A DNA stretch of 64,000 nt from Schmidtea nova (taxonomy: Eukaryota), in the NCBI GenBank assembly GCA_044892505.1, contig CM097883.1, forward strand, positions 155,124,001 through 155,188,000, read 5' to 3'. How positions within the stretch are numbered: the first letter of the stretch is position 1; every line of letters begins with the position of its first letter. Positions 18,699 through 42,488 of the stretch are shown piece by piece. The position numbers were made by a program, and so were the translations under genes. The notes beneath the pieces are model-generated. The model worked only from the letters and a program-made list of their open reading frames with translations, was not told the origin of the DNA and searched no databases.

Positions 18699-19104
18699 GG
18701 ATTATTTTTTAAATTTGATAAATTTAAAATTAAATTTGTTTTAACACGTGGCTATTGCATAAACATAGAGTAGTAGTAGTAGTAGATAAAACATAGATGA
18801 AAACATAGAATATTAATATATTTATATAGTGGCGATTAGTGTTCGTAATACAATATTTCCAAAACATTCGTAATACAATATTAATAATAATATTCGTAAT
18901 ACAATATTTCCAAAACATTCGCTAGATGACAGTCTACACACTCAACCACAGCAAAGAAGATTGCCAGTATAGCGGGATTATTAGAATTATTGTGTTTCGT
19001 CACTTAGCATAATGGTTTTATAAACTTGGATTGTAGCGGAAGACTGAGTTTGCATACCCTTTTAAATTACCCTTTTAAAAAACCCTTTTAAATTTAACCT
19101 TTTA

Positions 19105-19234
19105 CCGGGGGGAGATCACCGGGGGGGAAATTACCGGGGAGAAATTACCGGGGGGGAATCGCCGGGGGGAAATCACCGGGGGGGAATCACCGGGGGGAAA
19201 TCACCGGGGGGAAATTACCGGGGGGGAATCACCT
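19105..19234. repeat. Right subterminal G-run array (inverse of 16815-16995)
   Basis: Repeats of AAT(C/T)ACC(G6-7). Confidence 0.95.
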
Positions 19235-20593
19235 GTTCCCGATTTGAACACAATCGAGTAGACACGTACCTACTCCACTAGACACTTAACAGTATGGCAT
19301 TCCCACTCATACGCTTATTTTTTCACGTCCACCCGCTTACCTCAACATACTCATATATTTCGAGGAGTGCTCTCACCCACTCAGCTTATAACTCTCTGTA
19401 ATTGCATGCTGCCCATTTACGCTCAATGGCTCTCAACACTCTACTCATCTACACTTCTCTACTAAATTCTAAAAATAGAAATTTTTCAATTCGACCGTCT
19501 ACTCGAGATCTCCTCTTGAGCAACTCACAATGATTGGTACTTGACTGGCTTCTATTCATGAACAATTTATTACAATGACGGGAGTGAGCAATTTAATTAA
19601 ATTGGAATTATTATTACCGTCGGGAATTAAATGACAAAATTTTTGTGAACGATCGCGATAATCGCGAACTACTTAATTACTTGAAATTTATTGGGTGACG
19701 GGGAATTCAATAAATGCTTCTACTCAGTGTTATTCATCGCAATCTCGAGTTATGACTGGTCTCGACAAAATTTATGATTGACTCAACAATTATCGTAACT
19801 TTCCAACCGGAACACTACTTAATCGCTAGGATATACGCAATTTATCTGTATAGTTGATACTATTTTAATGATCTATCATTCTGACAGTTTGCGTCGTCGA
19901 AAATTCATGTAAAGGGTCTCCGCAAATGCGCGTTTGCTGACAGATTTAGTAATTACAAAAATTGAGTAAACGAAACTCTGACCCGGCCTCACAACATTCA
20001 CCATTTACGCCTTATAATCTTTACTATTCGTCTTATACGGAGATCCCTATCTCCGCCCCATGATCGGAATAACGAAATTGAAAGCGAAATCCCCGGAGAG
20101 CCCGCAACCCTCGTGGTCGTCCAATTCTCGCATTATCTATGTACATTAATGATAACAAAAACAATGACTTACAATAATTCCAAGATGATCACGAATAATT
20201 AAGTGAGTGTTCCTTCGAGTGTCTTTGAAAATTCAATAAATTAGAATTTGGAAAATTTGCTAATGCCGTTGAAAATTTTTTACTGGTGAATGATATTTAT
20301 TCTACTGACTTGAGCGCCCCTTTTTATACTAAATTTGGCGCTCAAGCAGACAATCAGGATCGAGCTAGCTTTTTATTCGCTAAAAGATTCGATTTCTTAT
20401 TTTATTTATTTTAACTTTCTTATTTATCTTTTTCTGATTATTATTTATTGTTATTGTGATTTCTTATTTATTGTTAAACACAGCAATTCAGGTCTAAAAG
20501 GTAGACTTCCCATTCATTTTCCATAGTTCGTATTCTCCTTTTTATCTTTTGTTTTGTCGTCTATTGACGTCTCTTCTTTTATTTTCTCTATTT

Positions 20594-24468: not shown

Positions 24469-25318
24469 CGAAAAGCATGATCAAAGAATAAAATTGATAT
24501 CAGAATAAAGAAAATAATTTATTAAAATGTTATAGGAAAAATCCCCATTGAAATATTGGAATAATAACAGAGATAGGAATAAAAATAGGATAAATTAAAT
24601 TTGATTGTTTTAATCAATCAATTAATAAACAAAAATCAATGGATACACACATTATTTGACGGAATTAAAAACAAATATTTTAGAAATAAATAAATCAAAT
24701 TATAAAATAAAAATTACAAAAAATAAATAAATAATCAGTTATTAAAGCTAATAAATTAAGTTTAATAGTTACTATAAGTTTATATTTTCGAGTGTTAATG
24801 TAAAGGGATATCAAATGCTTATGTGTGTTATAATTATTTAGATGTTTAGAAAATTGTTGGCGTGTCGTATTAGAAATAACTTTCCATTATTAGTCTTCTA
24901 GGATCATCGGTTGTCATCCTCTCCTATCTATGCTCTCACTAGGGTTCGACACACACCCGTAAATACCCTATTTATTTACGTTGGTGCTGTGTATGACGGC
25001 CGACCGCAAATCGACAGGTGAGCTCCTTCACAGGAACTACTCTCGATTTGTCGTTTGTTCAGGTTCTACCAGACCGATAAATGATCATTTTCTTTTCTTC
25101 TCCTCACACTTTCGCTGGTCACTACTTTCGCGTGGCGTTCGTCAATCTATGATTTAACTCTCGCTACTCTTTGTTCGTTGGAAAACCTTATGAAAAGTCC
25201 CTACCACTACGTTTATTAGTTATAAAAGAATTCAAATCAAAACATAACGAATTATTAAACTTTACATATAATGGTTCATTGATTAACACATTACAACAAT
25301 TATCACATTTCTGTCCTT

Positions 25319-25765
25319 TTACTGTTTGGGGATCATTGATGACGTTCGGTTCTGTTGCTCCTCAAATCGCGGCTTGGCCCTGTGCCGACGTTTCCTTTTC
25401 TCCTGTTGGGTATCTTGGACTGCTACCTCAGCATTCGGTCCATGCACGTTCTCTGGATACCATTCAGTAAAGGTGATCGGTCTAATCAGCCCTTCTGACT
25501 CCGTCATCACAAATTTCTGCGTCAGATGTTTTTTACAATTCTTTAGCTCCATCTGTACTGCGGTCAACTACAATCGACAGTCGTCCAATGCCCTGGTTGT
25601 TCGCAGAAACTTATTCACTATCTTCATTTCTCCCGGGGAGAATAATTTCCCCTCCAAATATAGGATTCGTCGCTTTAGACTCTCAATAGTGCGGAGAAAA
25701 GCTTTAGAGTCTTCTTTCTCCAACAACTCTGTCTGGTGGTTGGCTTGAATTGATCGTTGGCACAA
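25319..25765 (-). pseudogene. LTR-encoded coiled-coil/basic ORF (LIRP family) split by one TAG at 25568-25570
   Basis: LKRRILYLEGKLFSPGEMK..RALDDCRL*LTAVQMELKNCKK..LIRPITFTEW..EKRKRRHRAKPR. Confidence 0.75.
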
Positions 25766-26112
25766 TTATCACTAAAAACGATTATAGTTACTTAACTGTT
25801 AAGCGCGGTTCTTCCCCTTCAGCTTGATATCCAACCCTTAAGGTCGCTCGGGTTTTATAAATAACTGAACCGGAGAGTCTATAGAAGCTCCGCGTTCCAC
25901 TTGACGGTAATTGCTACCTCCTACAGTCGGTACAACTAATTGACCGTTCTATAATACGTTATTATAGCTACTACACACAATAAATTGAACATTAATTTAC
26001 AATAATAATAACGAAATAAGACACAGAATCTAATATTTTGGTATCAAAAACACAAATCACGATGTTACATCCATACACACAAACTATAACGTTCGTTTCT
26101 TCCTTTGTGGAA

Positions 26113-26565
26113 TCAAGCAATGTAAGGACTATATGGTAAGTCTGTGGGGTTATCAGACGGTGCGGGACTCAGGACGAATCGTCCCATCTGCCAGAGGTCT
26201 TCTTGAGGAATTGCCCCTGCATATTGTATTAGATATCTTCCCGGGATTTCAGTTGGGGTTTCTACAAAAAACAACGGACAATCTGGTGGGCACTCTTGAT
26301 CTATATTTATCGGCCACTCCTGGCTCCCATGCCAGATGACCGTATAGGGGCTATCACGAAATAGGCTGAAAGATGCGGTCTGCTCCGTACTCTCGAATGT
26401 CCTCGGGTGGTTCTCCAATATTTCTCGGGCAAGGTCCGTTGGGATACACTTCAACGGCATCGCCAGAATCAGGTGATTGTTATAATTGTCTGAAGTATGC
26501 TCGTTCCTCGTGGCAGATGCCTCTCCAGTTGCCGGATTTAATCGTAATGACGTATAACTATTCAT
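26113..26565 (-). CDS. LTR-encoded PLKxIP-family protein (likely ATG at 26565)
   Basis: Homologous to 15968-16516. The ATG is preceded by TTTATAG|G. Confidence 0.7.
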   Translation of the reverse strand: MNSYTSLRLNPATGEASATRNEHTSDNYNNHLILAMPLKCIPTDLAREILENHPRTFESTEQTASFSLFRDSPYTVIWHGSQEWPINIDQECPPDCPLFFVETPTEIPGRYLIQYAGAIPQEDLWQMGRFVLSPAPSDNPTDLPYSPYIA

Positions 26566-27401
26566 CCTATAAACAAATATTAATAATAATTTAAATGAGT
26601 TTCTACTTAAGTACTCTCGATGATTTATGGGCAAACGGTAAATTAGAATAAACGTTAAGCGATACTTAGGTCCCCTTGTCCTAACGTTGGGATACCTGTA
26701 AACTCGGTAAACTCGATTTTTACAGTACCTAAATAAAATGGATATTGGATTTTCAAAAAAAGGGATTCTGTCGGTTCTGGATTGGGTTAAAACAAAAATA
26801 GTAAATTAAACAAAACGCTCTAGGGATTCCTCCATCCAAGACCTAACATAAAAAGCTTACATATCCACGAGCACCCTCGATCATTTCCCTGTAATAATCG
26901 AGTTGGAAATGTGCAAGGTGTTTGAACAATGATGGGCAGGTGAGCTCTATTGCTAAAACTACTCCCCATTTATGTTCACGGGTTCGTCTCGCTGCCGATA
27001 GAAGGACTTACGCTTTAACTTTAATCTATCCGCCTCCATTATCTTTCATTTTAATGTTTCTTTTAGCCCCCTTTCTTTACAATATTTTTCAACTTTCAAC
27101 TTTTGTTTCAGCCCCTTTCTTTACAATATCTTTCAACTCTCAACTTTTCTTTCAGCCCCCTTCTTTACAATATCAACAAATAATCTCTAATCAATTACAA
27201 TTTATTATCTCTTTAATGTTTCTATTGTTTATTAGATTTATGTTAATCTTATTGTTAATTCTAATGTATAGTTAATTTATTCTATATTTTCCTTTAAATT
27301 ATTTTAAATTTTTAATAAATCACATTATTTTCTATACTTTACCATAAAATAAATACAAACAAAAATTATTTAATAAGCAAAATTCACAAATCACAAAATT
27401 T

Positions 27402-27995
27402 CTAATCAAAATATTTAGTAATGTCTTCATCCGATATTGCAAAGTTCATGGTTAGATCAATCTCGGGAATTTCTTTTGATTGTTGTGCCAATTGCTGGAG
27501 AACTTGTTTCTTCCAGCGACGCTGGCGTGCTCCCATCTTGCTCTTCTTCTTCCTTTTACCTTCTGGATTTGTCGTGTTCTTTGGTGTACTTGCTGCTATT
27601 GTTATTGCACGAACCTGAGATGGTTCCTCGGTGTTTGTTCCTTTTGTGCATCCTGCTTTCTCGTCAGCCCAATGCTGATAAGTGATTGGTCGAATGAGCT
27701 GGCTGAGCTCCTGAGTTAAATACGATGCCGTTACAGATTTTAGACATTTCTTTAGTTCCATCTTCGTCGCGTCCAATTCCATTTGGATCTCCTCGTTGGC
27801 TCGCTGTGAGCGTTGATTTTTTATGATTTGTGTTTTCATCTGCTCTGGACTGAACCAGCTTTTCTTCAGGTTTGAGATTATGCCATCGGCTTCTTTTATT
27901 TTTTCCGATTTCCGTAACATTTCTTTTTCCAGGCTGCGAATTATCCTCCATGCTTTATCCAATTCGGCTTGATTAGTTGCTGTGTTGGCTGACAT
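27402..27995 (-). CDS. LTR-encoded 197-aa coiled-coil protein with a Lys/Arg-rich C-terminal motif (LIRP family), 3' LTR copy
   Basis: Intact in both LTRs; WFSPEQMK, LIRPITY, GKRKKKSKMGARQRRWKK. Confidence 0.8.
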   Translation of the reverse strand: MSANTATNQAELDKAWRIIRSLEKEMLRKSEKIKEADGIISNLKKSWFSPEQMKTQIIKNQRSQRANEEIQMELDATKMELKKCLKSVTASYLTQELSQLIRPITYQHWADEKAGCTKGTNTEEPSQVRAITIAASTPKNTTNPEGKRKKKSKMGARQRRWKKQVLQQLAQQSKEIPEIDLTMNFAISDEDITKYFD

Positions 27996-28730
27996 TCTCT
28001 AAAATTCAAGATGGTTTATTAACATGAAATTGGTAGTCTTGATTCGAACGATTCTCATACTTTTGACAGTTATTAATTGTTAATTCAGGAAGAGAAAATG
28101 ATTTACCTATTACACTTTCAACACTGTCGCTATGTACAGCGATCAGATACATTTATTTCATAATATATTTTATTTATTCACGCCTGTGCTATATACAGCA
28201 TTCAGGTTACCAAATTATTTAAATAAACTAAGATCCACTGCCCTATGTACAGGGTTCAGGATAAGCCATTATATTTAATTATTTATGTGGAATGTTTGAA
28301 CCTATAGCCTATTGCTGCTATGTTACTTGCGTAGTAGATCACTACGTTATTAGAGTTATCGATTTTTATATTGTTATTAAAAAATATATTTTGTACAAAT
28401 GCTTAACCGTGTATCTGCCGCTCTATGCCCACAAACCCCAGATGTGACAATCGAAAAATATAGGTGAACACTCGGTGAATCTCAAGGTAAAATCAGATTA
28501 ATAAAATCACAGCTATATCTGTCTCAAACTAAAATCAAACTCAACCCAACTATAAACTTATAAAATCAATTCGGTTATAAAATAAAAACTTCAACTGGCT
28601 ATACTCCAGTGAAAAATAAGGTTAGAAATCAAAAAATAAAAATTCCTACCCTCTTCACGGCGCTTTACACCGGTCGGACGGCCCAACTGTACGGAGCAGT
28701 CGTTTCTACTCGGCACAGTATGCCTCCATT

Positions 28731-29008
28731 TCACCGATTGCACGGTGATCGGAGCCCCTTAAATCATACGTAATTTTCTACTATAACTACGGTATATAAA
28801 TAATATATATTCGCCTCCTTCCACTGATTGCACAGTGGAAGAAGCTCGACCCAAAAATATTCATAAAAGAATGTATACTTATACGTATTTGTTAGCATTC
28901 TACCATAAGGTTGTCTCCTTCCACTGATTTCACAGTGGAAGAAGCTTAATAAAATATAAATAGGTATATAGATATCTTTGTCTCCTTCCACCGATTTCAC
29001 GGTGGAAG
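28731..29008. repeat. Four stem-loops with a shared hexaloop ATT(G/T)CA (second set at 40072-40349)
   Basis: TCACCG/CGGTGA at 28731-28748; CTTCCACTG/CAGTGGAAG at 28818-28841 and 28918-28941; CTTCCACCG/CGGTGGAAG at 28985-29008. Confidence 0.9.
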
Positions 29009-29140
29009 AAGCTTGAATACTTCTAAATTCAAAGAAAAGAATAAATCCTAGATAATATTTCATAAAGTTTATTGATAATCAAATAATGGCTAACAGAAAT
29101 CATAAAACAATAGTAACAAAATTATCAAAAATTCAAAAAT

Positions 29141-29290
29141 CCATACCTGTTAGTTTTTTCAATAAAATTGTCTCACAAAAGTTGTCAATAACAAAATGTT
29201 GAAAAATATCATACATTGAATTTAACTGAATCTGGATCAGTATTTATACTGACCAGATCAGATGCTGAACCAATCAGCGTGAAGCTGATT
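29141..29290 (-). promoter_or_regulatory. Putative LTR core promoter and major splice donor (CCAAT-like box, TATAAATA 29241-29248, Inr-like TCAGTT 29224-29229, CAG|GTATGG donor at 29146); same layout at ~40482-40630
   Basis: Motifs read directly. The TATA+TCAGT arrangement recurs in LTR-A and LTR-C. Function is inferred. Confidence 0.55.
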
Positions 29291-29824
29291 ATCAGATCAG
29301 CACAAATAATAAATTTTATTAACGTTAAAATCAATTGATTTTGTTGTCAATTGCTAGCAATTTGCTATTTTGATTTTTATTATTTTTTGTAATTCTACTT
29401 ATTTGCTTTACTTTCTTTTTTATTTAAATATAATTAAATATCATCTTTCTTTAACACTTTTACATTTTCCATTTACTTTCTTCTAATTTTGATATTAAAT
29501 TAATATTCTTTATTACATTTTAATTCGTTTTTTACTGATATTTCTCGTAATTATATTCATTTAATTTGTTCCTATTTTTTCTTATTATTCTTATTATTTA
29601 TGCTAAATGTGGACCAAATGGTGGATCCAACATCACTCGGGGACCCCTAAAATTGCGTCCCGCAATTAATTATACACTATTACTTGTACTCAACATTCAT
29701 AAAAAATTTTACGTTTGATACATAAGCATAAAGATTCACATAAGGTGAGTTTATTCTATACGTAATCACGAAAAAAATATAAAGAAAATTCAGATAATTG
29801 TTAATCAAATATTTTGTCAAGTAT

Positions 29825-30388
29825 TTATGGTTTATACAAATAGTTCATAACTCGCACTGGATTGGACTGGTTCTGTGGAATTGCTGGTAATTCGTATTGG
29901 GTTTGTATTCTGTTGAGCTGATTTCTCATTTGTCTTCGGGCATTGTCATCATGTGCTGTTGTTTGGTTGATGATTGATTGTTTTTGTTTAAGAACTTTTA
30001 TTCTGTATACTGCGATGAGAATGGTAATTGCGCAGGTTGTTGTACTAATTGTTAATACGATTATAATCGCAACGATCCATCGCTCTTGGTATTGCATTTC
30101 TGCTCGATGTAAATTCTTTATAGTTTCTTTACTTTCTTTTAGGGTTTTTCGAATCTTCTCTAATTTGTTATTGATTTTGCACAGGGTTTGTTGCGTTGAT
30201 ACTGGGTTAGGTGCTGTTGACAATTGAATTTGAGAGATTTCTCTGACTGTTCCTTTTAATAGATTATCTATTTCTTTATAGATTTTATCGGGTAAGACTT
30301 GTAGATTTTCTTTTGATATCGGACGGTCTTCTCTTTGTTGGGTGATCTCGATTACGTTTAGGATTATCAGTATTGCGAGTTTCTTCAT
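29825..30388 (-). CDS. Small predicted type-I membrane protein (signal-like N-terminus, coiled coil, TM, cytoplasmic tail) in the env position
   Basis: MKKLAILIILNVIE; TM WIVAIIIVLTISTTTCAITILIAVY followed by RIKVLKQK; tail contains YELP and NYLY. Confidence 0.7.
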   Translation of the reverse strand: MKKLAILIILNVIEITQQREDRPISKENLQVLPDKIYKEIDNLLKGTVREISQIQLSTAPNPVSTQQTLCKINNKLEKIRKTLKESKETIKNLHRAEMQYQERWIVAIIIVLTISTTTCAITILIAVYRIKVLKQKQSIINQTTAHDDNARRQMRNQLNRIQTQYELPAIPQNQSNPVRVMNYLYKP

Positions 30389-30461
30389 TTCACTTTACAA
30401 ATTTGTCAATACAGTTTGACATTGTTATTTTACAGATATTTACAACGAATTTTTCGCTTCT

Positions 30462-31565
30462 TTAAACTAACGACTCATTGGGTTCGTGAAAACCTTCATC
30501 TTGAGGTTCCACTTGGTTTGTAGGGGGTGGTAACCACACTATCGTGTTTCTCCACATTGTTACTTCGTCTCGATAGAAGTGTGATAATTGGATTTCTTCA
30601 TCCAACAGATATTCTAAATAGTTTGATTGTTCTGTTAATGCTTCGATCTGTTTTTCTAATTCTGTTATTTTTTTGTTTTTCTCTTCCTCTTCCATCATTT
30701 TTATTACTGCCTTGGTGATATCTGTCTCTTTTGGTGGTGTTAATTTTTGTATCAGTTTTTGTTTCAACTCTTCATTTTCTTTGGTTAAATTTAATAAATT
30801 TTCCTCATAGCTTTGTTTTGCTTCCTCTAATTTTAATAAATTTTCTTCATAGCTTTGTTTTGCTTCTTCTAATCTTTCTTTAGTTTTCTTTAATTCTATC
30901 TTCTTTTGAGTGATTACTCCTTGATAACCATTAATATCGCGCTTCATATCTTCCTCTTTCTGCATCCCTGCTCTGAGGTTTGCATCTGATTGTTGTTTAC
31001 TGAAATACAATTCTCTTTCCGATCTTTCAATCTGGTGCATAAGTTGTTTAATTTTTCCTGCTTGCTCTCTGATGAATTGTTGTCTCTTTTTATTCCATTT
31101 TTTGCTCGATATTTCCTGATAGGTTCTCTGTTCTAATTCCTCTTTTAATTTATCGATTTCTTCAAATAATTTCCAATCATCGCTGTACGCCGTTCTTTCG
31201 ATTATTTCTCTTGCTTTCGTATAAGATTCTTTCGCTTCTTTTTTCCAATATCTTGCTTGCTCGGTAATGGAGTACATTTTCCGTTCCATTTCTGTTCGTT
31301 CTCTCTCTCTTTCTTCTCGTCGTTCTTTCATCATCTTTTTATAATATTCTTTTTGTTTCTCCAATAATTCATATAATTCGTCTATTTTATCTTGACTTAA
31401 TTGCTTTAATCTTTTGGCTTCTGTTATTTGTTCGGCTTGTCTTTCTACTTCTTTTTGTTTGTGGTAATATGCGTGGATCCAACTTTCAATTTGTTCTAAA
31501 TGCTCACAAATAACTTCATCTTGATGTTCGGTTACTTCTTGTAAACTGATTTCGACGTTTCCCAT
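30462..31565 (-). CDS. Coiled-coil cargo protein of unknown function, 367 aa, with a 14-aa internal duplication
   Basis: E/K/Q-rich heptads; EEAKQSYEENLLKL / EEAKQSYEENLLNL. Confidence 0.75.
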   Translation of the reverse strand: MGNVEISLQEVTEHQDEVICEHLEQIESWIHAYYHKQKEVERQAEQITEAKRLKQLSQDKIDELYELLEKQKEYYKKMMKERREERERERTEMERKMYSITEQARYWKKEAKESYTKAREIIERTAYSDDWKLFEEIDKLKEELEQRTYQEISSKKWNKKRQQFIREQAGKIKQLMHQIERSERELYFSKQQSDANLRAGMQKEEDMKRDINGYQGVITQKKIELKKTKERLEEAKQSYEENLLKLEEAKQSYEENLLNLTKENEELKQKLIQKLTPPKETDITKAVIKMMEEEEKNKKITELEKQIEALTEQSNYLEYLLDEEIQLSHFYRDEVTMWRNTIVWLPPPTNQVEPQDEGFHEPNESLV

Positions 31566-31670
31566 TTTCTATAATTACAAATATTTTCAATCAGGCTACT
31601 TTTATTATTTTTGTTTATTTATCATTTTATATTGTTTTGTACAGTTTATTTACACGATTGTTTTCTCTTG

Positions 31671-33026
31671 CTACGCCAACCATCCTTTTCTATCTGCCTT
31701 CTCGTTCCTTTCCATTTCTATGTATAAGGTGTCCTCATACAATAATCCCCATATCTTGCTTTGTAATACAAAGTGTGGTTCTCCACTTGCTAATCCACAT
31801 TCTTCTGTTGGTCTGTTACTCGTAACTGCTCCTTTTTCTGTCGTGAATCTCTTTTCTATGGTTTCGTTTAAACCCCTGATTTTTATCATTACTCCTACTC
31901 CTATTGGCCAATCGATTAAATCGTCATATTCTCCTTTGCAAAACGCAAAAAATATTGATAGGTGTTTTCCCATACTTTTCCCATCTCCGTTTGGATATAC
32001 TTTCAATCTCACTTTAGCCCCGTTTTTCCATAAGTAAAATGGTGGGCTTAGTACCGCAGTTTTCTTGAAGCTTCGTGCATCTTCCAATTTATTTCGAAAA
32101 TCCGTTATTTTCCATACATAAGGTGCTATTGGTAAATCTTTTTTCTCATCAATTTCTTGTATTAACTTGTTATATTGCACTTTCATTCCTTTTGCTAATT
32201 CCTTGATGGCTATTATTTTCTTTTCCATCTTTTCTCGGGTTAGTTCAAATTGTTCTCTCGTTTCTAATAATAGGTTCATCATTATTTTATGAGATTCTAC
32301 TTCCTTTTCTAATTTCTGAATTGTTCTATCCGTCATTTCAATATGATTGATTGCTTCTGTTTCTAAATGTTGTTTCATATTTTGTTGAGACTTCTTTTCC
32401 TTGCATCCATATCTGTTGTAAGGACATTCTCTTGGTATTTCTGTACACTTTTTCCAATGTTCTCGTAATTTCACTTCTTCGGTAATTTCACATTTGTTTG
32501 GGCACACTCCTACATACTGTTCGCATATTCTCTCTTCTTTTTTATTGATGTGCTCTTCTTCAATTTTTCTCCTTGTTTCTCGAATTTCGCAATATTCACA
32601 TGCGATTTCTTCCTCTTTGCATTCATCTCTGTGTTTCTCTTTGTCTTTTAAAATTATCGTTTCTTTACACTTTTCACATTCGCTTCTCTTTTCTTCACAA
32701 TTTTCTATATGATTTTCAATTTCACTGATTTGTCCTTGCCATATGCACGGTGGATTTATACATTCAATTAATATGCTCATAATTTCTCTCTGAGTTGCTC
32801 TATCTGGTCTTGTTTCGTCTAATACTATTTGTCCCTCTTTACATTCTGGACATTCTGTTATTTTCTTTAGTTCCAACATTTGTACACATCTGGTGCATAA
32901 TTTACATCCGCAGGCGGTTTGCTTCGGTTTTCGTAATAAATTATTACAATATCCACATACAAATCTCTTGTTCCACTTTCTGTTTGCTGCTCTCAAAATC
33001 TCGACTGCTCGTTCCTCTTTATCCAT
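31671..33026 (-). CDS. Intronless full-length TRAF-like protein (RING, TRAF zinc fingers, coiled coil, MATH)
   Basis: CGYC..LLRKPKQTACGCKLCTRC..CPEC; ECINPPCIWQG; CPNKC; CPYNRYGC; YVWKITDF..SPPFY..KVRLKVYPNGDG..HLSIFF..GEYDDLIDWP. Confidence 0.93.
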   Translation of the reverse strand: MDKEERAVEILRAANRKWNKRFVCGYCNNLLRKPKQTACGCKLCTRCVQMLELKKITECPECKEGQIVLDETRPDRATQREIMSILIECINPPCIWQGQISEIENHIENCEEKRSECEKCKETIILKDKEKHRDECKEEEIACEYCEIRETRRKIEEEHINKKEERICEQYVGVCPNKCEITEEVKLREHWKKCTEIPRECPYNRYGCKEKKSQQNMKQHLETEAINHIEMTDRTIQKLEKEVESHKIMMNLLLETREQFELTREKMEKKIIAIKELAKGMKVQYNKLIQEIDEKKDLPIAPYVWKITDFRNKLEDARSFKKTAVLSPPFYLWKNGAKVRLKVYPNGDGKSMGKHLSIFFAFCKGEYDDLIDWPIGVGVMIKIRGLNETIEKRFTTEKGAVTSNRPTEECGLASGEPHFVLQSKIWGLLYEDTLYIEMERNEKADRKGWLA

Positions 33027-33118
33027 TTCTACAATAATACATACATTGATTTGTTCTTTGTTTTTGATTTTTCTAGAGTTTTATTTTTACATATATACAA
33101 TTTTCCGCTACAATTTGA

Positions 33119-33454
33119 CTATGGTTCGCTCGTTGAATCAGGTTCTATACCATTTTCTAATCCATTTATTACCCAATCTAGCCATTGACCTTTTGATTCA
33201 TCTCTTCTTGATAGTTGATTCATTTCCACTGTTTGTCTCAATCTCTGATTCTCTCTTGTCAGTTCTGTTATTATTCTCTGTTGCTCTTCTATTTTATGTA
33301 ATTGTTCAAAGATATTGTTGTAGCAATCTGCTAATATATTTTGCTTCTCTACCAATTGATTCTGTAGTGCATTGATTGATCGAACTAACGTTTCACATTG
33401 TGCTTTCCATCGTATAGTCAAAGTCATTTCGGTTGTTTCTCCTTGTACATTCAT
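33119..33454 (-). CDS. Small coiled-coil cargo ORF, 111 aa
   Basis: ATG behind a TTTTAG acceptor; heptad pattern; same strand and codon style as its neighbours. Confidence 0.6.
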   Translation of the reverse strand: MNVQGETTEMTLTIRWKAQCETLVRSINALQNQLVEKQNILADCYNNIFEQLHKIEEQQRIITELTRENQRLRQTVEMNQLSRRDESKGQWLDWVINGLENGIEPDSTSEP

Positions 33455-33576
33455 TTTCTAAAATACATTATTATTTTTCTCTTTTCTCTTTTTATATACT
33501 CTATAATACTAATACCCATACTATATACGGTAATGCTTTGTAATTTACAATATTATTTACAGTCATATCCCACCCT

Positions 33577-35499
33577 CTATACTATCATCACTGCTTTTTC
33601 ATCGTGTCGCTCCTCGTCTTCTGTCTGTAAAAATGCTTCTCGGGGTAGTTTCGTCATCCCCGGAATCGTCTTGTTTACTTTATTAATTAATACTCCCACT
33701 TCCTCTTTTTCATCATATTCAAATCGAAATACATGATCGTTTGGCATGACTACCAACATCCCTTTTTGTTTAATAACTTCTTCGTTTTCTTGTACTATTT
33801 CTTTTTGGTTTTCTTCATCTTCCGGATTTGGGTTTATCTGGTTTGTTTCTGGTTCAATATCTTCCTTGTTATCTCTTGTTTGATTTGTTGCTCTCATCAT
33901 ATTAATTCTCAATGGTTGTCGTTCTCTTTCTTGTCGTTTCTGTTCGTCTTCTCTTTGTATTCTTGCCCATTCTTCAGCATGTCGTGCTTGACTTTCTCGA
34001 TTTAGTCGTTCATTTTCACTTTCCACTTTTCTCATCATATTCATTTGTTGTTGATTCGTTTGTTGGTTTCCTCTCGGTGTATTGTTTATTAATTCTGTTA
34101 ATCTTTGAACTTCTTGTAATAAATGTATTTCTTTGGTGGTACTTTTATTCTGGTTATAATTACTCTGTTGATTTTCAAAATTCTGACGGTTTCCGTTACT
34201 CTGTTGATTCGTATAATTTTGTCGATTTCCGTTGTTCGACCAATTCCTTTGCTGGTTGTTTTGTTGTTGGCAGTTCCTTGCCATATGACCTGATTGTCCA
34301 CAGTTATAACATGATCTTTGGTAACATCTATTCTCTGCATGTCCTTTTCTTCCACACTTTTTACAATTTAAATTCGCGAAACATTCTTGTTGCCAATGTC
34401 CTAACTTTCCACAGGTTTGACATTGCTTTGTCTGTCCTTGCGTACTATAATTATTTTGGTTTCTGTAATTTTGTATTTTGTTTCCTTCATTTCTCCTTTG
34501 AGGCGGTGGTCGGTTTAATTGTTGTGAATTCGGAATATGGTTATTTATCTTCATTGCTTGTTCATTTTGTGTCGTATCCATTGCTAGGTAAATTCTTCCT
34601 TCACTTCCGATCATATGTAATTCGAATCTGTTGGCAATTTCCAACGCTTCATCTATTGTTTTACAACCTTGGCATCCAACTTGTGCTCTAATATCGGGTC
34701 TTCTCAATCCTCCCACAAAAATTGCTGCCATTAATTCTGAACTCATTGGACTATTTTGATTAAATGCTAATTTAGCCAATTTCTTTAATTCACTTGCATA
34801 TACTGCATTTGATTCATTAACTTTTTGTTTCCTCATTGAAAATTCTGTAAATGCTTCATTTAATACTTTATTTATTCCAAACGTTTGCTGGAAAAAATTC
34901 TTTATCTTTTCCCAACTATCGAGTTGATCATCTGAATTTTTAGCTTCCAAATATAAATCTAACGCACTGTCTTTTAAATATAACTGAATTCTGCTTCTTA
35001 TCGTTTCTGGTTTCCATTTACATACTTCTACAAATATACCAAATTCTTTTAAAAACGTTTCTAACTTGCTGGCATCTCCATTGAATGGTTCTCCAGTAAA
35101 TTTATCTTTGATTTCTTCTTTATGTTCGTTCATTTCGATTCCGCTGTCTTGTGTCGTTTTACTCTCGTTTCCTCTTGTTTCACTAGTATGCTCGTTATTC
35201 GTTTCGTTTGAATTATTATCAATTTCTGCTTCTACTTCTTCTGTATTTATTGACTCGTTATCTGATGCTTCCGTATTATTATAATTATCGTAGGTTTCAC
35301 TTGAACTTTCTTCTGTTTCACTTTCGTTAGTTTTTGTTAATTTACTGTTTTCGATTTTTGACTTTTCTACTATTACTCTTCTTGATTTACTTCCTTTAGG
35401 ATTTGTTTTCTTTGTAACACTGGTTGCTCTTTGTTTCGATTTACTTCTCTGGGAGTTATCAACTTTTTCGATTGTAGCACTAACTGCTCTTGATCTCAA
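33577..35499 (-). CDS. gag: Gag with Ty3-type capsid region and three CCHC zinc knuckles; true N-terminus probably extends to an acceptor at 35646 across a 1-nt frameshift
   Basis: FNGDASKLETFLKEF..W..LYLKDSALDLY; CQTCGKLGHWQQEC, CKKCGRKGHAENRC, CYNCGQSGHMARNC. Confidence 0.9.
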   Translation of the reverse strand: MRSRAVSATIEKVDNSQRSKSKQRATSVTKKTNPKGSKSRRVIVEKSKIENSKLTKTNESETEESSSETYDNYNNTEASDNESINTEEVEAEIDNNSNETNNEHTSETRGNESKTTQDSGIEMNEHKEEIKDKFTGEPFNGDASKLETFLKEFGIFVEVCKWKPETIRSRIQLYLKDSALDLYLEAKNSDDQLDSWEKIKNFFQQTFGINKVLNEAFTEFSMRKQKVNESNAVYASELKKLAKLAFNQNSPMSSELMAAIFVGGLRRPDIRAQVGCQGCKTIDEALEIANRFELHMIGSEGRIYLAMDTTQNEQAMKINNHIPNSQQLNRPPPQRRNEGNKIQNYRNQNNYSTQGQTKQCQTCGKLGHWQQECFANLNCKKCGRKGHAENRCYQRSCYNCGQSGHMARNCQQQNNQQRNWSNNGNRQNYTNQQSNGNRQNFENQQSNYNQNKSTTKEIHLLQEVQRLTELINNTPRGNQQTNQQQMNMMRKVESENERLNRESQARHAEEWARIQREDEQKRQERERQPLRINMMRATNQTRDNKEDIEPETNQINPNPEDEENQKEIVQENEEVIKQKGMLVVMPNDHVFRFEYDEKEEVGVLINKVNKTIPGMTKLPREAFLQTEDEERHDEKAVMIV

Positions 35500-36247
35500 T
35501 TTATTTCTTTGTGAATTATTAACTTCTTGGTTTTTAACTGTTCTTGATCTCGGTTTACTTTTCTTTAATTTATCAATTTTTCTGTTTCTCTGTTATCGTA
35601 TTCTGATTGATTGGTTGGTTGTTTTGACTTGTTCTGTTCCGTATATCTAAATTAAAAAGTCACTTCAACGATACATCATTGTTATCGTTGCGCTTTTATT
35701 CCTCATTATTGGGTTTCCATTGTTTCCCCATTCCCGGTTTCCCCTTTATTTAAGTCTATTTAAATTATCTATTCACTGGTAACAATTATCTATATGGTCG
35801 TAATAATTATCTATCGTTATCAAATAAATTCATTACTTTTCCCTCAGTCTCCAAATTTAATTTGTCGCTCAAACGCTTTAATTCCCTTGAGTTCTCCTGA
35901 CTCAATTATCATTTTATCACTATTTACTATATCATCGTTACTCATTATTCCCACTATTGGTCATCTCTAATTTCTCATCATTACTCACTATTCTCACTAT
36001 TTCTACCGGTTTTTACGGTCAACTCTAATTTCTCCTATTCTTATTTCTACTCGTATGCATACTGAATCTCTAGTTTACCTAATCATCTTTACTTTTATTA
36101 CTCAAACTCTAATATTCACTATTCTTACTTCGTCGACGACTACAACTCTAGGTTCATATTCCTTTCGTTGCTTATCCGGATAATTTATACAACTCTAGGT
36201 TCATATTCCTTTCGTTGTCATTTAATTTCACACAATTGCAAACCTGG

Positions 36248-36664
36248 GTTCAAATTCCTTAGGTTGCCTATAATCATGAGTTCATATTCTCATGTTACTA
36301 TTATTCACTGCAATCATAAGTTCACATTCTTATGTTGCCTACAATCATGAGTTCATATTCTCATGTTACTATTATTCACTGCAATCATAGGTTCAAATTC
36401 TTATGTTGCCTACAATCATGAGTTCATATTCTCATGTTGCTATTATTCACTGCAATCATAGGTTCAAATTCTTATGTTGCCTACAATCATGAGTTCATAT
36501 TCTCATGTTGCTATTATTCACTGCAATCATAGGTTCAAATTCTTATGTTGCCTACAATCATGAGTTCATATTCTCATGTTGCTATTATTCACTGCAATCA
36601 TAGGTTCAAATTCTTATGTTGCCTACAATCATGAGTTCATATTCTCATGTTGCTATTATTCACT
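36248..36664. repeat. Tandem array of ~6 x 71-bp units, each made of two related subunits
   Basis: The unit start GTTCA(A/C)ATTC recurs at 36248, 36320, 36391, 36462, 36533 and 36604. Confidence 0.95.
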
Positions 36665-37009
36665 GTTATCATATTAACTCTTATTCTCTTTATTTCTTAC
36701 TGATCAGTTTTATATTCTCTCTTTTTATTTATTTTTTCTGCGCGCACTTAAACCTCATTAGATTGTCCCTACCTTTCACCCCAACCAAAATATACAAAAA
36801 GATCGCATTGGTCTACTAATGCAAGATGTGGTGATCAGTCACATCACAAAAGCTTTCCAATTTCCGCGATGGGCCCCTTTCTATACATCTCGGGTAAGTT
36901 GATCAGTTGGTTCCTCCCAATGGGTGCTTAACGGACTACTCGTGAGCAGCTCAAAAATTATTTATACATATCAATTGTTATTATGATTTCTGTCATTGCC
37001 ATTATCAAC

Positions 37010-37210
37010 TCTCATTTTAAATTCTCATTATTAACTCTCATTATCAATTATCATATTAATTCTCATTATGAATTCTCATATTAATTCCTATTAAGAATTC
37101 CCATATCAACTCTCATTATGAATTCTCATATTAATTCTCATTATGCATTATCATATTAATTCCCATTATGAATTATCATATTAATTCTCATTATCAATTC
37201 TCATATTTTA
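37010..37210. repeat. Degenerate short-period tandem repeat (ATTCTCATTATGA/ATTCTCATATTA-like)
   Basis: Read directly. Confidence 0.7.
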
Positions 37211-37249
37211 TTTATTACGAATAATATTACTAAATTCACCATTTATTTA

Positions 37250-37711
37250 TTATAAATACACAGTAATTCTTTCGTCTATTTCGAGATTGCACATCGGGCA
37301 TTTGTCGCAGTTGGCTGCACAGATTCCACAAAACCGAAAATGTCCAAAAGGTAAAAACATGATTTTATTCTCTCTTTCTCGACATATGTAACAGAGTTTA
37401 AATTTCTTAGCTGTCTCAGTTCCTTGTATCGTCCACTTGTGGTATGTTGGAGTTAATTGTTGTTCTAGCTGTCTGCATTTTATGTTTACATCAGCATTTT
37501 CTAATCTCGTTCGGTACCACTTGTATCTAGTTGTTATATCTATTTTGTCTACTCTTTCCATTATTTTTATCAGCTCTGTTGTCTCTTCAGTTTGTGTCAT
37601 GGGTTCTTTGAATCCGGATTCTCTTATTCGACTTATTTTCTCGCATAATTCGTCATATGTTTTGTTTTCCGTGTTTAGAAATTCTTCCGTTTCTTTTACT
37701 TTTTCGTTCAT
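37250..37711 (-). CDS. 153-aa protein with a C-terminal IAP-type RING finger (third Cys replaced by Phe), no BIR domain
   Basis: LCYICRERENKIMFLPFGHFRFCGICAANCDKCPMCNLEIDERITVYL* matches the IAP C-terminal pattern C..C....F.PCGH...C..CA....CP.CR..I....V(Y/F). Confidence 0.85.
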   Translation of the reverse strand: MNEKVKETEEFLNTENKTYDELCEKISRIRESGFKEPMTQTEETTELIKIMERVDKIDITTRYKWYRTRLENADVNIKCRQLEQQLTPTYHKWTIQGTETAKKFKLCYICRERENKIMFLPFGHFRFCGICAANCDKCPMCNLEIDERITVYL

Positions 37712-38081
37712 TGCTAAATAATTGATATTGTTAATATGTTTGTTGTTTTATTTGTTATTCAAAATTAAAGATTTCAACATCTTGTTTCTCTATTTGCTCG
37801 ATTTGTATCATTTAAAAGTAGTGGTACATTTCGTTTTCTGATGTTAAACCTCTCCCTGTTTCATCAAATTGTCGTCCCGACATATTTATTTATGTTTATT
37901 TATTTTATTTTAATATCAATTATTAATCATCTGTTGTTATAGTTATTCAATCATTGTTTTTCAAAATTCTCTGTTGATATTGTTTTTCACTTTTACAAAA
38001 TTCACTTATATTATTGGCTGAGGGGCATTTTAAAACTCCTGGTTATTATTGGATTCAATTTTTCGCACAAAAACCATTTTG

Positions 38082-38099
38082 ATCCCGGCTGAGCCCCCA
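38082..38099 (-). promoter_or_regulatory. Primer-binding site, tRNA-Pro
   Basis: TGGGGGCTCAGCCGGGAT vs the canonical Pro PBS TGGGGGCTCGTCCGGGAT (16/18), 9 nt from the LTR. Confidence 0.85.
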
Positions 38100-38108
38100 A
38101 ATTTATGT

Positions 38109-40974
38109 TGTCGGTTCTGGATTGGGTTAAAACAAAAATAGTAAATTAAACAAAACGCTCTAGGGATTCCTCCATCCAAGACCTAACATAAAAGGCTTAC
38201 ATATCACACGAGCACCCTCGATCATTTCCCTGTAATAATAGAGTTGGAAATGTGCAAGGTGTTTGAACAATGATGGGCAGGTGAGCTCTATTGCTAAAAC
38301 TACTCCCCATTTATGTTCACGGGTTCGTCTCGCTGCCGATAGAAGGACTTACGCTTTAACTTTAATCTATCCGCCTCCATTATCTTTCATTTTAATGTTT
38401 CTTTTAGCCCCCTTTCTTTACAATATTTTTCAACTTTCAACTTTTGTTTCAGCCCCTTTCTTTACAATATCTTTCAACTCTCAACTTTTCTTTCAGCCCC
38501 CTTCTTTACAATATCAACAAATAATCTCTAATCAATTACAATTTATTATCTCTTTAATGTTTCTATTGTTTATTAGATTTATGTTAATCTTATTGTTAAT
38601 TCTAATGTATAGTTAATTTATTCTATATTTTCCTTTAAATTATTTTAAATTTTTAATAAATCACATTATTTTCTATACTTTACCATAAAATAAATACAAA
38701 CAAAAATTATTTAATAAGCAAAATTCACAAATCACAAAATTTCTAATCAAAATATTTAATAATGTCTTCATCCGATATTGCAAAGTTCATGGTTAGATCA
38801 ATCTCGGGAATTTCTTTTGATTGTTGTGCCAATTGCTGGAGAACTTGTTTCTTCCAGCGACGCTGGCGTGCTCCCATCTTGCTCTTCTTCTTCCTTTTAC
38901 CTTCTGGATTTGTCGTGTTCTTTGGTGTACTTGCTGCTATTGTTATTGCACGAACCTGAGATGGTTCCTCGGTGTTTGTTCCTTTTGTGCATCCTGCTTT
39001 CTCGTCAGCCCAATGCTGATAAGTGATTGGTCGAATGAGCTGGCTGAGCTCCTGAGTTAAATACGATGCCGTTACAGATTTTAGACATTTCTTTAGTTCC
39101 ATCTTCGTCGCGTCCAATTCCATTTGGATCTCCTCGTTGGCTCGCTGTGAGCGTTGATTTTTTATGATTTGTGTTTTCATCTGCTCTGGACTGAACCAGC
39201 TTTTCTTCAGGTTTGAGATTATGCCATCGGCTTCTTTTATTTTTTCCGATTTCCGTAACATTTCTTTTTCCAGGCTGCGAATTATCCTCCATGCTTTATC
39301 CAATTCGGCTTGATTAGTTGCTGTGTTGGCTGACATTCTCTAAAATTCAAGATGGTTTATTAACATGAAATTTGTAGTCTTGATTCGAACGATTCTCATA
39401 CTTTTGACAGTTATTAATTGTTAATTCAGGAAGAGAAAATGATTTACCTATTACACTTTCAACACTGTCGCTATGTACAGCGATCAGATACATTTATTTC
39501 ATAATATATTTTATTTATTCACGCCTGTGCTATATACAGCATTCAGGTTACCAAATTATTTAAATAAACTAAGATCCACTGCCCTATGTACAGGGTTCAG
39601 GATAAGCCATTATATTTAATTATTTATGTGGAATGTTTGAACCTATAGCCTATTGCTGCTATGTTACTTGCGTAGTAGATCACTACGTTATTAGAGTTAT
39701 CGATTTTTATATTGTTATTAAAAAATATATTTTGTACAAATGCTTAACCGTGTATCTGCCGCTCTATGCCCACAAACCCCAGATGTGACAATCGAAAAAT
39801 ATAGGTGAACACTCGGTGAATCTCAAGGTAAAATCAGATTAATAAAATCACAGCTATATCTGTCTCAAACTAAAATCAAACTCAACCCAACTATAAACTT
39901 ATAAAATCAATTCGGTTATAAAATAAAAACTTCAACTGGCTATACTCCAGTGAAAAATAAGGTTAGAAATCAAAAAATAAAAATTCCTACCCTCTTCACG
40001 GCGCTTTACACCGGTCGGACGGCCCAACTGTACGGAGCAGTCGTTTCTACTCGGCACAGTATGCCTCCATTTCACCGATTGCACGGTGATCGGAGCCCCT
40101 TAAATCATACGTAATTTTCTACTATAACTACGGTATATAAATAATATATATTCGCCTCCTTCCACTGATTGCACAGTGGAAGAAGCTCGACCCAAAAATA
40201 TTCATAAAAGAATGTATACTTATACGTATTTGTTAGCATTCTACCATAAGGTTGTCTCCTTCCACTGATTTCACAGTGGAAGAAGCTTAATAAAATATAA
40301 ATAGGTATATAGATATCTTTGTCTCCTTCCACCGATTTCACGGTGGAAGAAGCTTGAATACTTCTAAATTCAAAGAAAAGAATAAATCCTAGATAATATT
40401 TCATAAAGTTTATTGATAATCAAATAATGGCTAACAGAAATCATAAAACAATAGTAACAAAATTATCAAAAATTCAAAAATCCATACCTGTTAGTTTTTT
40501 CAATAAAATTGTCTCACAAAAGTTGTCAATAACAAAATGTTGAAAAATATCATACATTGAATTTAACTGAATCTGGATCAGTATTTATACTGACCAGATC
40601 AGATGCTGAACCAATCAGCGTGAAGCTGATTATCAGATCAGCACAAATAATAAATTTTATTAACGTTAAAATCAATTGATTTTGTTGTCAATTGCTAGCA
40701 ATTTGCTATTTTGATTTTTATTATTTTTTGTAATTCTACTTATTTGCTTTACTTTCTTTTTTATTTAAATATAATTAAATATCATCTTTCTTTAACACTT
40801 TTACATTTTCCATTTACTTTCTTCTAATTTTGATATTAAATTAATATTCTTTATTACATTTTAATTCGTTTTTTACTGATATTTCTCGTAATTATATTCA
40901 TTTAATTTGTTCCTATTTTTTTCTTATTATTCTTATTATTTATGCTAAATGTGGACCAAATGGTGGATCCAACA
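38109..40974 (-). repeat. 5' LTR of element B (2866 bp)
   Basis: Direct repeat of 26769-29632, adjacent to the PBS. Confidence 0.97.
38743..39336 (-). CDS. LTR-encoded 197-aa LIRP-family protein, 5' LTR copy
   Basis: One residue differs from the 27402-27995 copy (ITK vs IIK). Confidence 0.8.
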   Translation of the reverse strand: MSANTATNQAELDKAWRIIRSLEKEMLRKSEKIKEADGIISNLKKSWFSPEQMKTQIIKNQRSQRANEEIQMELDATKMELKKCLKSVTASYLTQELSQLIRPITYQHWADEKAGCTKGTNTEEPSQVRAITIAASTPKNTTNPEGKRKKKSKMGARQRRWKKQVLQQLAQQSKEIPEIDLTMNFAISDEDIIKYFD

Positions 40975-42488
40975 ATTCTCTAAATGGGTTTTCTCGAATG
41001 TCGTCCCTCCTCTGGAAGTATAAATTCAATCTCAACTCTGGGGTATACGAAATGATGGTTTTCCACACAATCTTCAGGAAATGCCCCGCTTACTCTAACG
41101 CTGGTCATTTAGCCAGAAGTGTGATGATTGATGTTCACCCAAAAAATTTATAAAATCGGGAGTGCCCTGACACGGCCGCCGGACATTCTCTGTTCAACTC
41201 AACGTTCCTCAGATCCTACAGCAATCCCTATCTTTGTCCCACACTCAGAAGTGTGAACAAAAGAGCGAAATTACTGGAGAGCCAACAGTCCCTAGGATTG
41301 TCCAGACCCTCTGGTCGGTTAATATAAATTAATATTAAAAACAACACGAATTAGATTTAAAAATTTTTCAAAGTAATACAAAACTACTTACAAACAGTTT
41401 CCGGTTAATGATCAAATCCAAAAAAAATTTGGTTGCAAGATTTGGTCTCATTCGAGTGTTGAATGACTTCGAAATTATATGTCGCTAAAATGCTGCTTAG
41501 AAAAACTAATTAATGTATAATTAACGGGAAAATGCTAATCCGACTGACTTGAGCACTTTTTATATACAGTTTTTGCGCTAAAACAGCTAATGAAAATCGT
41601 TTTAGCCTTTAATTGACCAAAATAAATCGATTTTTTAATATTTTTATTTATTTGCATTTTTCTTAATTAATTTTCATTCCCTTTTGTTAATATTCCTGTT
41701 TAATTGTTATTTAATTAATTGAATTCCTATTTTTATACTTTTCCTCTTACTTCGTATTTTATTTCAGCTTTCTTTTTTTATTTCTTGTTTTAATCTTTGT
41801 ATTTTTGTTGTTATTATTCTCTTTTATCCTTTGCTAGTTTGTTTTTATTGTTTAATTATTGTTTTTTTCCTAATTATTATGTTATTTTGTGACTATTTCT
41901 GTGTTTTTGCTAACCCAACAAAATTGAATGGCTCAACAGTCTCCTTTAAAAATCACTGTGTAGGGACAGTTGGGGTGCTTGCTATATAAATGACTGTATG
42001 TGTGCGTGTGAATGTAAACAACTAACAAATAATTATAACCACAAAAAACAATTTTAATAATAACAACTTTTATTTGATTAAAGAAAAATGAAAAAGTAAC
42101 CAGTACTCACAATTTTATCGAATAATAATTTTGTTAGTTTTTTATTTCTTTTAGCTTCTATCGCTATAGATATTTTATCTTCCTTTTTAGATTTTCGTCG
42201 TATTGTTAGGCTTTTTTAAATATGAATCTTCAATCAATTCTTCTTGTATAGAAATCCCTTCCTCTATCTTTTTTCAGTAGGAAATAGAAATTTCTCTTAG
42301 TTAGTATTTTTCCTTAATCTTCCAAATCAATTTTTCAATTCTTGCTGTTGTTAGATTCTTTTTATTTTATTTAATCTAATTGTCATGAACAATTGATTTT
42401 TATTTTTTAATTTAATTTTTTATATTTATTTAAATTTCTATTATCCTCAAGGCATAATTGCCGCAAGGACGCCCTTACTAGTAATAAC

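Follow-up and report, generated by a model that had tools for sequence, protein, structure and literature searches.

How does a transposable element that carries several genes one behind the other on a single strand bring each of them to expression? The question is raised by element B, a long terminal repeat (LTR) element with seven open reading frames (ORFs) in Schmidtea nova, located on contig CM097883.1 (GenBank assembly GCA_044892505.1) within positions 155,124,001 to 155,188,000. This whole 64-kb stretch is referred to below as the window; coordinates are positions in the window, and all features of element B are on the minus strand. A first-pass annotation had suggested that every ORF of B starts directly behind a splice acceptor, and that either one leader exon is spliced alternatively to about seven acceptors or a polycistronic RNA is resolved by spliced-leader (SL) trans-splicing. 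To judge from the sequence, the most likely answer is that B processes a single long RNA into a separate message per gene, as complex viruses do, because a splice signal precedes each of the seven genes.

Element B runs from 40974 to 26769 (14.2 kb) and is bounded by two LTRs with TG...CA ends. The 5' LTR (38109..40974, 2866 nucleotides (nt)) and the 3' LTR (26769..29632) are 99.8% identical, with 4 mismatches and 2 gaps, and a 4-bp target-site duplication, GAAT, is found at 40975-40978 and 26765-26768. Because the LTRs differ at only 6 positions and both the TG...CA ends and the GAAT flanks are present, B transposed recently; it is a young LTR element. The 3' LTR holds second copies of a donor (29146), an acceptor and an ORF (27402-27995). 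The pairs 27995/39336 and 29146/40487 of the first-pass annotation are therefore present, but as two copies of one LTR and not as separate sites, and are counted once, which leaves seven ORFs and seven sites. In order, the ORFs are a 197-amino-acid (aa) ORF inside the LTR (the LTR ORF), an IAP-type RING ORF, gag, a 111-aa ORF, a TRAF-like ORF, a 367-aa ORF (CC367) and a 187-aa membrane protein (TM187).

Splice acceptors at the starts of the open reading frames

The motifs quoted in the first-pass annotation are all found on the minus strand where it had placed them (for the ATG motifs, the coordinate is the A of the ATG). Its rule that every ORF lies 2-4 nt behind an acceptor holds for six of the seven starts but not for gag, whose ATG (35133) is 513 nt from the site at 35646. 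Five ORFs are preceded at 2-3 nt by a YAG acceptor, namely the LTR ORF (AG at 39341-39340, 3-nt spacer), the RING ORF (37715-37714, 2 nt), the 111-aa ORF (33459-33458, 3 nt), TRAF (33030-33029, 2 nt) and CC367 (31570-31569, 3 nt). The site of TM187 (ATG 30388; AG 30394-30393, 4 nt) is present and weak, as had been noted, being AAG and not YAG.

An excess of AG over shuffled sequence had been proposed as a check, and it is found: AG stands 2-4 nt 5' of the ATG in 6/7 starts (gap shuffles, P 6e-4), compared with 74 of the 262 other ATGs of B (binomial, 0.003). TAG at the same spacing occurs at 5/7 starts and 15/262 other ATGs (p ~1e-5), and the flatworm motif UUNYAG (PMC12582326) at 4/7 and 2/262 (Fisher, 2e-6). 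WTNYAG, a motif chosen post hoc, precedes five of the seven starts, 6/262 other ATGs of B (8e-7) and 30/1112 ATGs of the window; in a control for ORF-calling bias it was found at 4 of 106 other first-ATG ORFs of at least 50 aa.

Although gag breaks the spacing rule, its sequence argues for the same reading. The candidate acceptor (AG 35648-35647) opens a stretch (35134..35648) in which the 513 nt up to the gag ATG are devoid of ATG in all frames, where shuffles average 7.4 (P 2e-4; P 0.002 with codons shuffled); this is the longest ATG-free run in B. The gag frame is free of stops from 35592, i.e., over the final 153 codons before the ATG; no frame leads from the acceptor into gag without a stop in B, the 5' end of gag being broken in this copy. 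A full-library search with Gag gave 10 matches at E <=1e-30 (40-47% identity); the closest relative, P0003, carries Retrotrans_gag, and one relative, P0006, an integrase zinc finger. A second search (query P0007) gave 25 relatives, and a homologue search with gag residues 150-470 gave none among 968 candidates.

The 26 Gag relatives examined are mostly copies of one family, and their junctions are computer gene models. A basic/acidic, Met-free extension before gag recurs in them: 21/24 capsid motifs with 150 upstream residues have no Met from -150 to -35, and 24/24 have a Met within 35 residues. In seven units the peptide ESIxKQSNPSQ, or a near variant, opens about 160-180 aa before the capsid motif, and at least five different upstream peptides join that one point in the models; the acceptor of B lies 181 codons before the capsid motif. 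The unspliced model P0152 is the same DNA, one base off in reading (13/13 steps compatible; shuffled mean 3.7), and reads L-F-L-G over the junction, which requires a G at -1 and a pyrimidine tract (7 of the 8 positions between -10 and -3). The phase of the Gag junction was rejected as a test of SL against leader AUG, since upstream peptides of phase 0 (7 units) and phase 1 (4 units) both occur among the 26 and alignment to the three frames of B gave no decision.

Of the interpretation in the first-pass annotation, the part in which every ORF is expressed through an acceptor of its own is thus well supported by the enrichment and, for gag, by the ATG-free stretch and the relatives, whereas the choice between cis-splicing and SL is not decidable from DNA. 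That the acceptors of B are used at all is considered likely.

Leader exon, intergenic gaps and competing explanations

A TATA box at 40589 and a TCAGT initiator at 40570 (40566..40589) in the 5' LTR would set the start at about 40568, and the predicted leader exon (40488..40568, 81 nt) ends at the donor CAG/GTATGG (40480..40490, first intron base 40487), with 9/11 matches to the textbook consensus. The same TATA-TCAGT pair occurs in the neighbouring repeats LTR-A, LTR-C and LTR-E; the order TATA, TCAGT, donor is found in 4/4 LTR families examined, with the donor 67-155 nt past TCAGT and always with +5 G, whereas a GTAAGT or CAGGTA hexamer is found in 3.5% of random 110-nt windows. LTR-A and LTR-C are related to each other, so the four families are not fully independent cases. 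The GTAAGT donors reported for LTR-A (20172) and LTR-C (41391) were confirmed. A distance of about 80 nt from start to donor, as had been claimed, describes B (81 nt after TCAGT) but not LTR-A (136 nt), LTR-C (155 nt) or the fourth LTR (67 nt). In LTR-E the donor is present though there is no ORF of more than 30 aa. The leader of B holds two ATGs, of which that at 40557 is open to the donor in phase 1 and that at 40553 closes within the exon. Rfam gave no match at gathering score in the window, and a sub-threshold U2 match over the promoter (E 0.64) was taken as chance.

Four gaps between the internal ORFs are short: 122 nt after gag (gap 1, 33455..33576), 92 nt after the 111-aa ORF (gap 2, 33027..33118), 105 nt after TRAF (gap 3, 31566..31670) and 73 nt after CC367 (gap 4, 30389..30461). 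Each holds the motif TGTAHATA (at 33561, 33099, 31654 and 30444), 15-19 nt past the stop, where 0.14 would be expected from gap shuffles, and a second TGTA at an identical offset (27). These four are the only copies in the internal region of B. The position of the motif is fixed to the stop codon and not to the ATG, and its occurrence in B is strand-specific (7 sense, 0 antisense; P 0.006). Three further copies surround three AATAAA in a candidate LTR poly(A) region (39472..39592), 140-250 nt before the LTR-ORF acceptor and with the donor-like site 39447 just downstream. The gaps show no significant excess of AATAAA (4 copies, one in gap 2 and three in gap 3, and so in 2/4 gaps, against 3.1 expected) or, over shuffles, of TATAWAW (P 0.13-0.16).

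TGTAHATA fits the Pumilio element. It also includes GTAAAT, with a donor score of 6-7/11 like that of donors A and C, but without their +5 G. Donor-like GT (at least 6/11 matches) occurs 5-45 nt past 6/7 stops, as against 25/78 non-coding windows, in a post hoc count; the exception is the last ORF, TM187, whose stop has no GT within 45 nt and an AATAAA 69 nt downstream. The motif may be either a 3' untranslated region (3'UTR) element or a weak donor. A CFIm reading of TGTA was weakened by the report that poly(A) signals of S. mediterranea are not preceded by UGUA (PMC5068929). With either role of the motif, each gap would begin and end with a signal that acts on RNA, which fits one mRNA per ORF.

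The best reading is cis-splicing of a single LTR leader exon to exons that each span a whole ORF, and we assign it a probability of roughly 0.55. A single 5' LTR promoter would give a full-length RNA, which, unspliced, would be the genome and would be copied by a presumed helper element. Cis-splicing of the 81-nt leader to one of the seven weak acceptors would give the chosen ORF the first strong AUG, and every such splice except the first would also remove the primer site. Each internal ORF would be a whole-gene exon ending just past its stop at the TGTAHATA module, which could serve as a weak donor, as a short 3'UTR/3'-end element or in the two roles at once. Cis-splicing is favoured because of the donor in 4/4 LTR families, the donor-like GT after 6/7 stops and the published rule that the spliced leader loses out to a cis donor lying upstream (PMC4558846, PMC8629364). 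In a cestode, splicing of an LTR donor to an SL acceptor has been observed (PMC4558846), and the major donor of foamy viruses lies in the LTR (PMC3694450).

The leader intron contains four 12-bp hairpins with a TG(A/C)AAT loop (40060..40358), with a competing acceptor at 40363 just upstream. The array has a fold z of -8.0 and no Rfam family; 44/48 cells are paired with 2 compensatory pairs, a level reached in 22/500 shuffles, which is modest support from four copies. Because of their position in the leader intron, only unspliced RNA would retain the hairpins. In the C. elegans element Cer1, a protein from a spliced mRNA exports the genomic RNA (PMC10309623); by analogy, and speculatively, the hairpins and the basic 197-aa LTR protein might form a Rev/RRE-like export pair for unspliced RNA.

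Several observations weigh against cis-splicing from a common leader. From the leader ATG at 40557, translation would run out of frame into three of the ORFs. A nearer, more pyrimidine-rich acceptor is open to the leader donor at 40363 (124-nt intron), and the first ORF acceptor has a local donor-like AG/GTAAAT at 39447, 108 nt before it, so long-range pairing is not required for either site. These local partners, like the hairpin array and the motif past the stops, had not been noted in the first-pass annotation. An LTR donor can also work via U1 binding without splicing (PMC3694450). A TM187 message requires six acceptors to be skipped across 10 kb. The acceptors at the starts are pyrimidine-poor (7-9/14, vs 9-12/14 in four host-like sites), and the acceptor-like sites 40363, 38229 and 38116 have more pyrimidines than any of them. 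A looser scan, which misses the gag and TM187 sites, gave 27 acceptor-like sites on the sense strand of B, 5 at starts and 22 elsewhere, with 11 of the 27 inside a 71-bp tandem array. The GT sites past the stops have neither -1 G nor +5 G. LTR-A is a weak replication only (13-nt spacer, second ORF decayed), and the junctions of the Gag relatives, being gene predictions, speak for a conserved acceptor-like site and not for its use.

Among the alternatives the best placed, which we regard as possible but rather unlikely, is an operon: RNA of the internal region would be cleaved and polyadenylated in the gaps and the host SL trans-spliced onto the next acceptor, the LTR donor serving an LTR intron or U1 protection only. 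A mixed form, with a cis-spliced LTR ORF and SL downstream, is included. The gaps of 73-122 nt agree with the spacing of about 100 bp at which operons peak in Macrostomum and with the limit of 300 bp used to define operons (PMC12582326, PMC8629364); same-strand spacing is at most 300 bp at 4/6 junctions, the LTR ORF-RING and RING-gag intervals exceeding 1 kb. UUNYAG fits 4/7 acceptors, and flatworm acceptors are widely common to cis- and trans-splicing (PMC12582326). Against SL, cis donors lie upstream (strong at 40487, weak GT in each gap), though 40363 may consume 40487. Reported parasitic-flatworm SLs all end in ATG, and 6/7 ORFs would be in frame with such an AUG or closed within 2 codons of it (null mean 3.4, P 0.04), a post hoc test that TRAF fails; Gag phase is of no help, both phases being found in the relatives. 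The order TGTAHATA-AATAAA-acceptor recurs before the LTR ORF, whereas AATAAA is not enriched in the gaps and 73 nt is tight for a 3'UTR, a cleavage site and a branch point. The gypsy element Cer1 yields an SL1-spliced mRNA (PMC3315495), while PMC12582326 contains no transposon passage, and an SL-bearing host has to be assumed. Carried furthest, this alternative would make B a seven-gene eukaryotic operon on a gypsy-type element, with a membrane protein and captured genes for ubiquitin and apoptosis functions (IAP-type RING, TRAF) on junction modules of about 100 nt (stop, TGTAHATA, 3'-end signal, acceptor, ATG), resolved by SL, and with the LTR protein rescuing the unspliced genome via the hairpins; this too we hold to be doubtful.

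It is improbable that the sites go unused, as leftovers from captured genes or as a side effect of A/T-rich sequence around the starts. The 22 other acceptor-like sites, the broken 5' end of gag and the small number of starts (n=7) suit this view, whereas the enrichment (p ~1e-6 against three backgrounds), the long residence of the ORFs, indicated by their sharing the A-rich composition of B, and the recurrence of the acceptor position in Gag relatives (about 41% identity) and in LTR-C oppose it.

Even less probable is stop-restart translation of a polycistronic RNA, from which only short gap introns (51-103 nt, post-stop donor to next acceptor), or none, would be removed. The lengths fit a host-like intron of 54 nt elsewhere in the window that likewise opens with GTAAAT. 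With the gap introns taken out, stop and next start would be some 20 nt apart in all four gaps. In 4/6 cases a short upstream ORF terminates at the ATG or overlaps it (P 0.008), although 2/4 upstream ATGs are by-products of the TGTA motif. The acceptors of RING, gag and the LTR ORF, where there is no short gap, would remain unexplained, and three LTR copies of the motif (two with GTACAT) are not donor-like. Its variable position is the degenerate position of the Pumilio element, which also counts against gap introns.

Least probable are internal promoters in the gaps, with TTAG/ATAG as a start-site motif and TGTAAATA as a forkhead-type DNA site: there are TATA-like hexamers 42-71 nt upstream of 3/7 sites (the 111-aa ORF, TRAF and CC367), but TATAWAW is not enriched, the initiator TCAGT is missing upstream of 7/7 sites, TGTAHATA is strand-specific and tied to the stop, and the 5'UTRs would be 2-6 nt long. 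A start site of its own for each ORF, one of the findings that the first-pass annotation had said would refute it, is thereby disfavoured; internal promoters and unused relics fit worst among the readings.

Cargo of element B and neighbouring elements

The LTR ORF (38743..39341 including the acceptor) encodes a coiled coil and a basic C-terminal patch; decayed homologues lie in LTR-C (E 2e-11) and LTR-A (E 0.01), Pfam gave no family match and an Atlas search no match at >=0.9. A primer-binding-site-like sequence (38082..38099) follows 9 nt 3' of the 5' LTR and may resemble a tRNA-Pro site; no tRNA genes were found in the window. The RING ORF (153 aa; 37250..37715 including the acceptor) matches Pfam zf-C3HC4_3 and the RING of XIAP (E 2e-8), and a RING homologue is found upstream of gag in three relative gene models (P0009, P0153 and P0162). 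The spacer between RING and gag contains tandem arrays of 25 bp x 8.2 and 71 bp x 6 (36247..37207). Gag (33577..35133) is 518 aa long from its first ATG, with CCHC knuckles recognized by Pfam (zf-CCHC).

The 111-aa ORF (33119..33454) is a coiled coil. The TRAF-like ORF (31671..33026, 451 aa) is intronless and carries zf-TRAF and MATH domains (Pfam MATH_2, 4e-21, and zf-TRAF); a homologue search gave 1 distant match among 3388 candidates. CC367 (30462..31565) is coiled-coil-like with no Pfam family. TM187 (29825..30388) resembles a small type I membrane protein, with a hydrophobic N-terminus, one strong transmembrane segment (about 105-126) and a basic tail. ORF translations and Pfam revealed no pol among the seven ORFs, and there was no match to BIR, BCL2 or env among them.

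B is inserted inside a solo LTR, LTR-C (24855..41920, -; 2856 nt without B), with ATTT on both flanks. ORF150 of LTR-C starts TTTATAG/gATG (26565), and a second ORF opens, with no ATG there, 6 nt past TTTTTAG (AG 25773-25772). LTR-A (14965..20480, -) is split by a MULE transposon (16814-19234) that carries FLYWCH and MULE domains (470 aa) and whose terminal inverted repeats are tandem, 14 bp long and G/C-rich; the first of its two ORFs, ORF182, starts 13 nt after GTGCAG. LTR-C (26113-26565, -) and LTR-A (15968-16516, -) each encode a related protein of 150-180 aa (49% identity), with no Pfam match and no counterpart in LTR-B. By eye it may resemble a UEV/UBC fold; a model from the 2-sequence alignment was uninformative (ORF150 pLDDT 33). 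A conserved block with core GGAGTAGTT...GAGCTCACCTG, situated some 200 nt from where the LTRs end on the 3' side, occurs on the minus strand at 38273-38312 (B), 24954-25129 (C) and 15066-15237 (A). A different predicted structure lies just past the donors of LTR-C (41180-41330, -) and LTR-A (19990-20135, -), with 31 pairs, 7 of them compensatory, in two sequences. The LTR-E-like repeat (47941..48981, -; 1041 nt), a single copy in the window whose ends are taken from TG...CA, has its TATA at 48472, TCAGT at 48441 and a GTAAGT donor at 48373; a further LTR-like repeat (57428-58190, +) is weakly similar to it (68% over 176 nt), with no clear donor by eye.

In the 3' part of element A (20594-23400, -), an integrase C-terminus is fused to ankyrin repeats in a Burro-like manner, and the next ORF holds a diverged duplicate of the ankyrin region (24% identity). 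A second gypsy element (4499-10896, -) has 508-bp direct repeats (99.6%) and an intact-looking pol of 1190 aa (reverse transcriptase (RT), RNase H (RH) and integrase (IN)). Its 690-aa ORF, whose start lies within the repeat, shows similarity to ribosomal protein L6e (E 2e-5) and Ig V-set (E 0.001) and then to gag-like DUF7041; the L6e and Ig V-set stretches are possibly captured host exons. Decayed Tc5/Tigger-like and, by eye, other DDE-type transposase fragments occupy 44000-45450 and 49400-54000, and a 168-nt N gap lies near 42490-42656. The 101 candidate host ORF fragments in the window were read by eye. Host-like short exons surround the 54-nt GT-AG intron at 12112-12360 (-), and an exon at 59565-59670 (+) reads by eye like protein-L-isoaspartate methyltransferase; both served as rough splice-site comparators only.

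Comparison with known systems

The giant gypsy elements of planarians, Burro and GYPSM1 (PMC6431247), share with B long LTRs, a CCHC Gag, MATH/TRAF and IAP-type RING cargo, and tandem repeats; their domains may lie in the polyprotein or in accessory ORFs (PMC6431247). Ankyrin repeats, another Burro cargo, occur in the window only in element A, after the integrase C-terminus. Compared by description, B differs in its 14.2 kb (vs >30 kb), in lacking a pol polyprotein and BIR/BCL2, and in having each domain as a separate ORF. Lacking pol and Burro size, it is called Burro-like and not a member, and the sequence is best explained by B being a non-autonomous, gag-only relative of the Burro-type elements. 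This likeness, together with the A/T-rich surroundings and their short introns, points to a planarian host. The Burro section of PMC6431247 is silent on splicing, to which passages of PMC8532177 and PMC11410931 add nothing.

The finding offers an account of how Burro-like elements may express host-like cargo outside a polyprotein. Burro1 is reported to protect planarian stem cells via a RING/BIR protein (PMC13465017), and the switching-on of such cargo genes therefore bears on host biology. A junction module, if true, would explain how such elements keep gaining genes, and solo LTRs with promoter, donor and ORFs of their own could also start host transcripts. Among the results listed in our literature searches, no gypsy-type element is described in which seven ORFs each have an acceptor and a junction module recurs, although Burro splicing may be covered by Grohme et al. 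2018 or Lee et al. 2026, or by the supplements of these papers.

Complex retroviruses such as HIV-1 have a donor near the 5' end and weak acceptors before accessory ORFs. Retroviridae differ from B in having pol and env, overlapping ORFs and shared 3' ends, and in making gag from unspliced RNA, whereas the gag of B is third in order and has an acceptor of its own. The adenovirus major late unit joins a common tripartite leader to many acceptors and has dense 3'-end signals; this is a lytic DNA virus, and the likeness to B is one of logic only. In foamy viruses the donor, again close to the 5' end, sits in the LTR itself and ahead of the poly(A) signal (PMC3694450).

Flatworm SL operons (PMC12582326, PMC8629364) share with B the spacing of about 100 nt and UUNYAG acceptors, but mostly consist of two conserved host genes, and none is reported in a retroelement in the passages cited. 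The ta-TRIM elements of taeniid cestodes (PMC4558846) are likewise non-autonomous flatworm LTR elements, with internal cis-splicing and an LTR donor able to capture an SL acceptor; they are described as miniature elements, whereas B has 14 kb and seven ORFs. In Cer1 (PMC3315495, PMC10309623), also a gypsy element, the unspliced RNA must skip splice sites and the initiator ATG stands behind an acceptor; cerv, a spliced mRNA found with and without SL1, encodes the genomic-RNA export protein. Cer1 is autonomous and has one five-exon accessory mRNA that shares gag sequence, whereas B would have seven whole-ORF exons. Complex retroviruses already provide a case of leader splicing to several acceptors, and Cer1 one of a spliced gypsy mRNA that accepts an SL.

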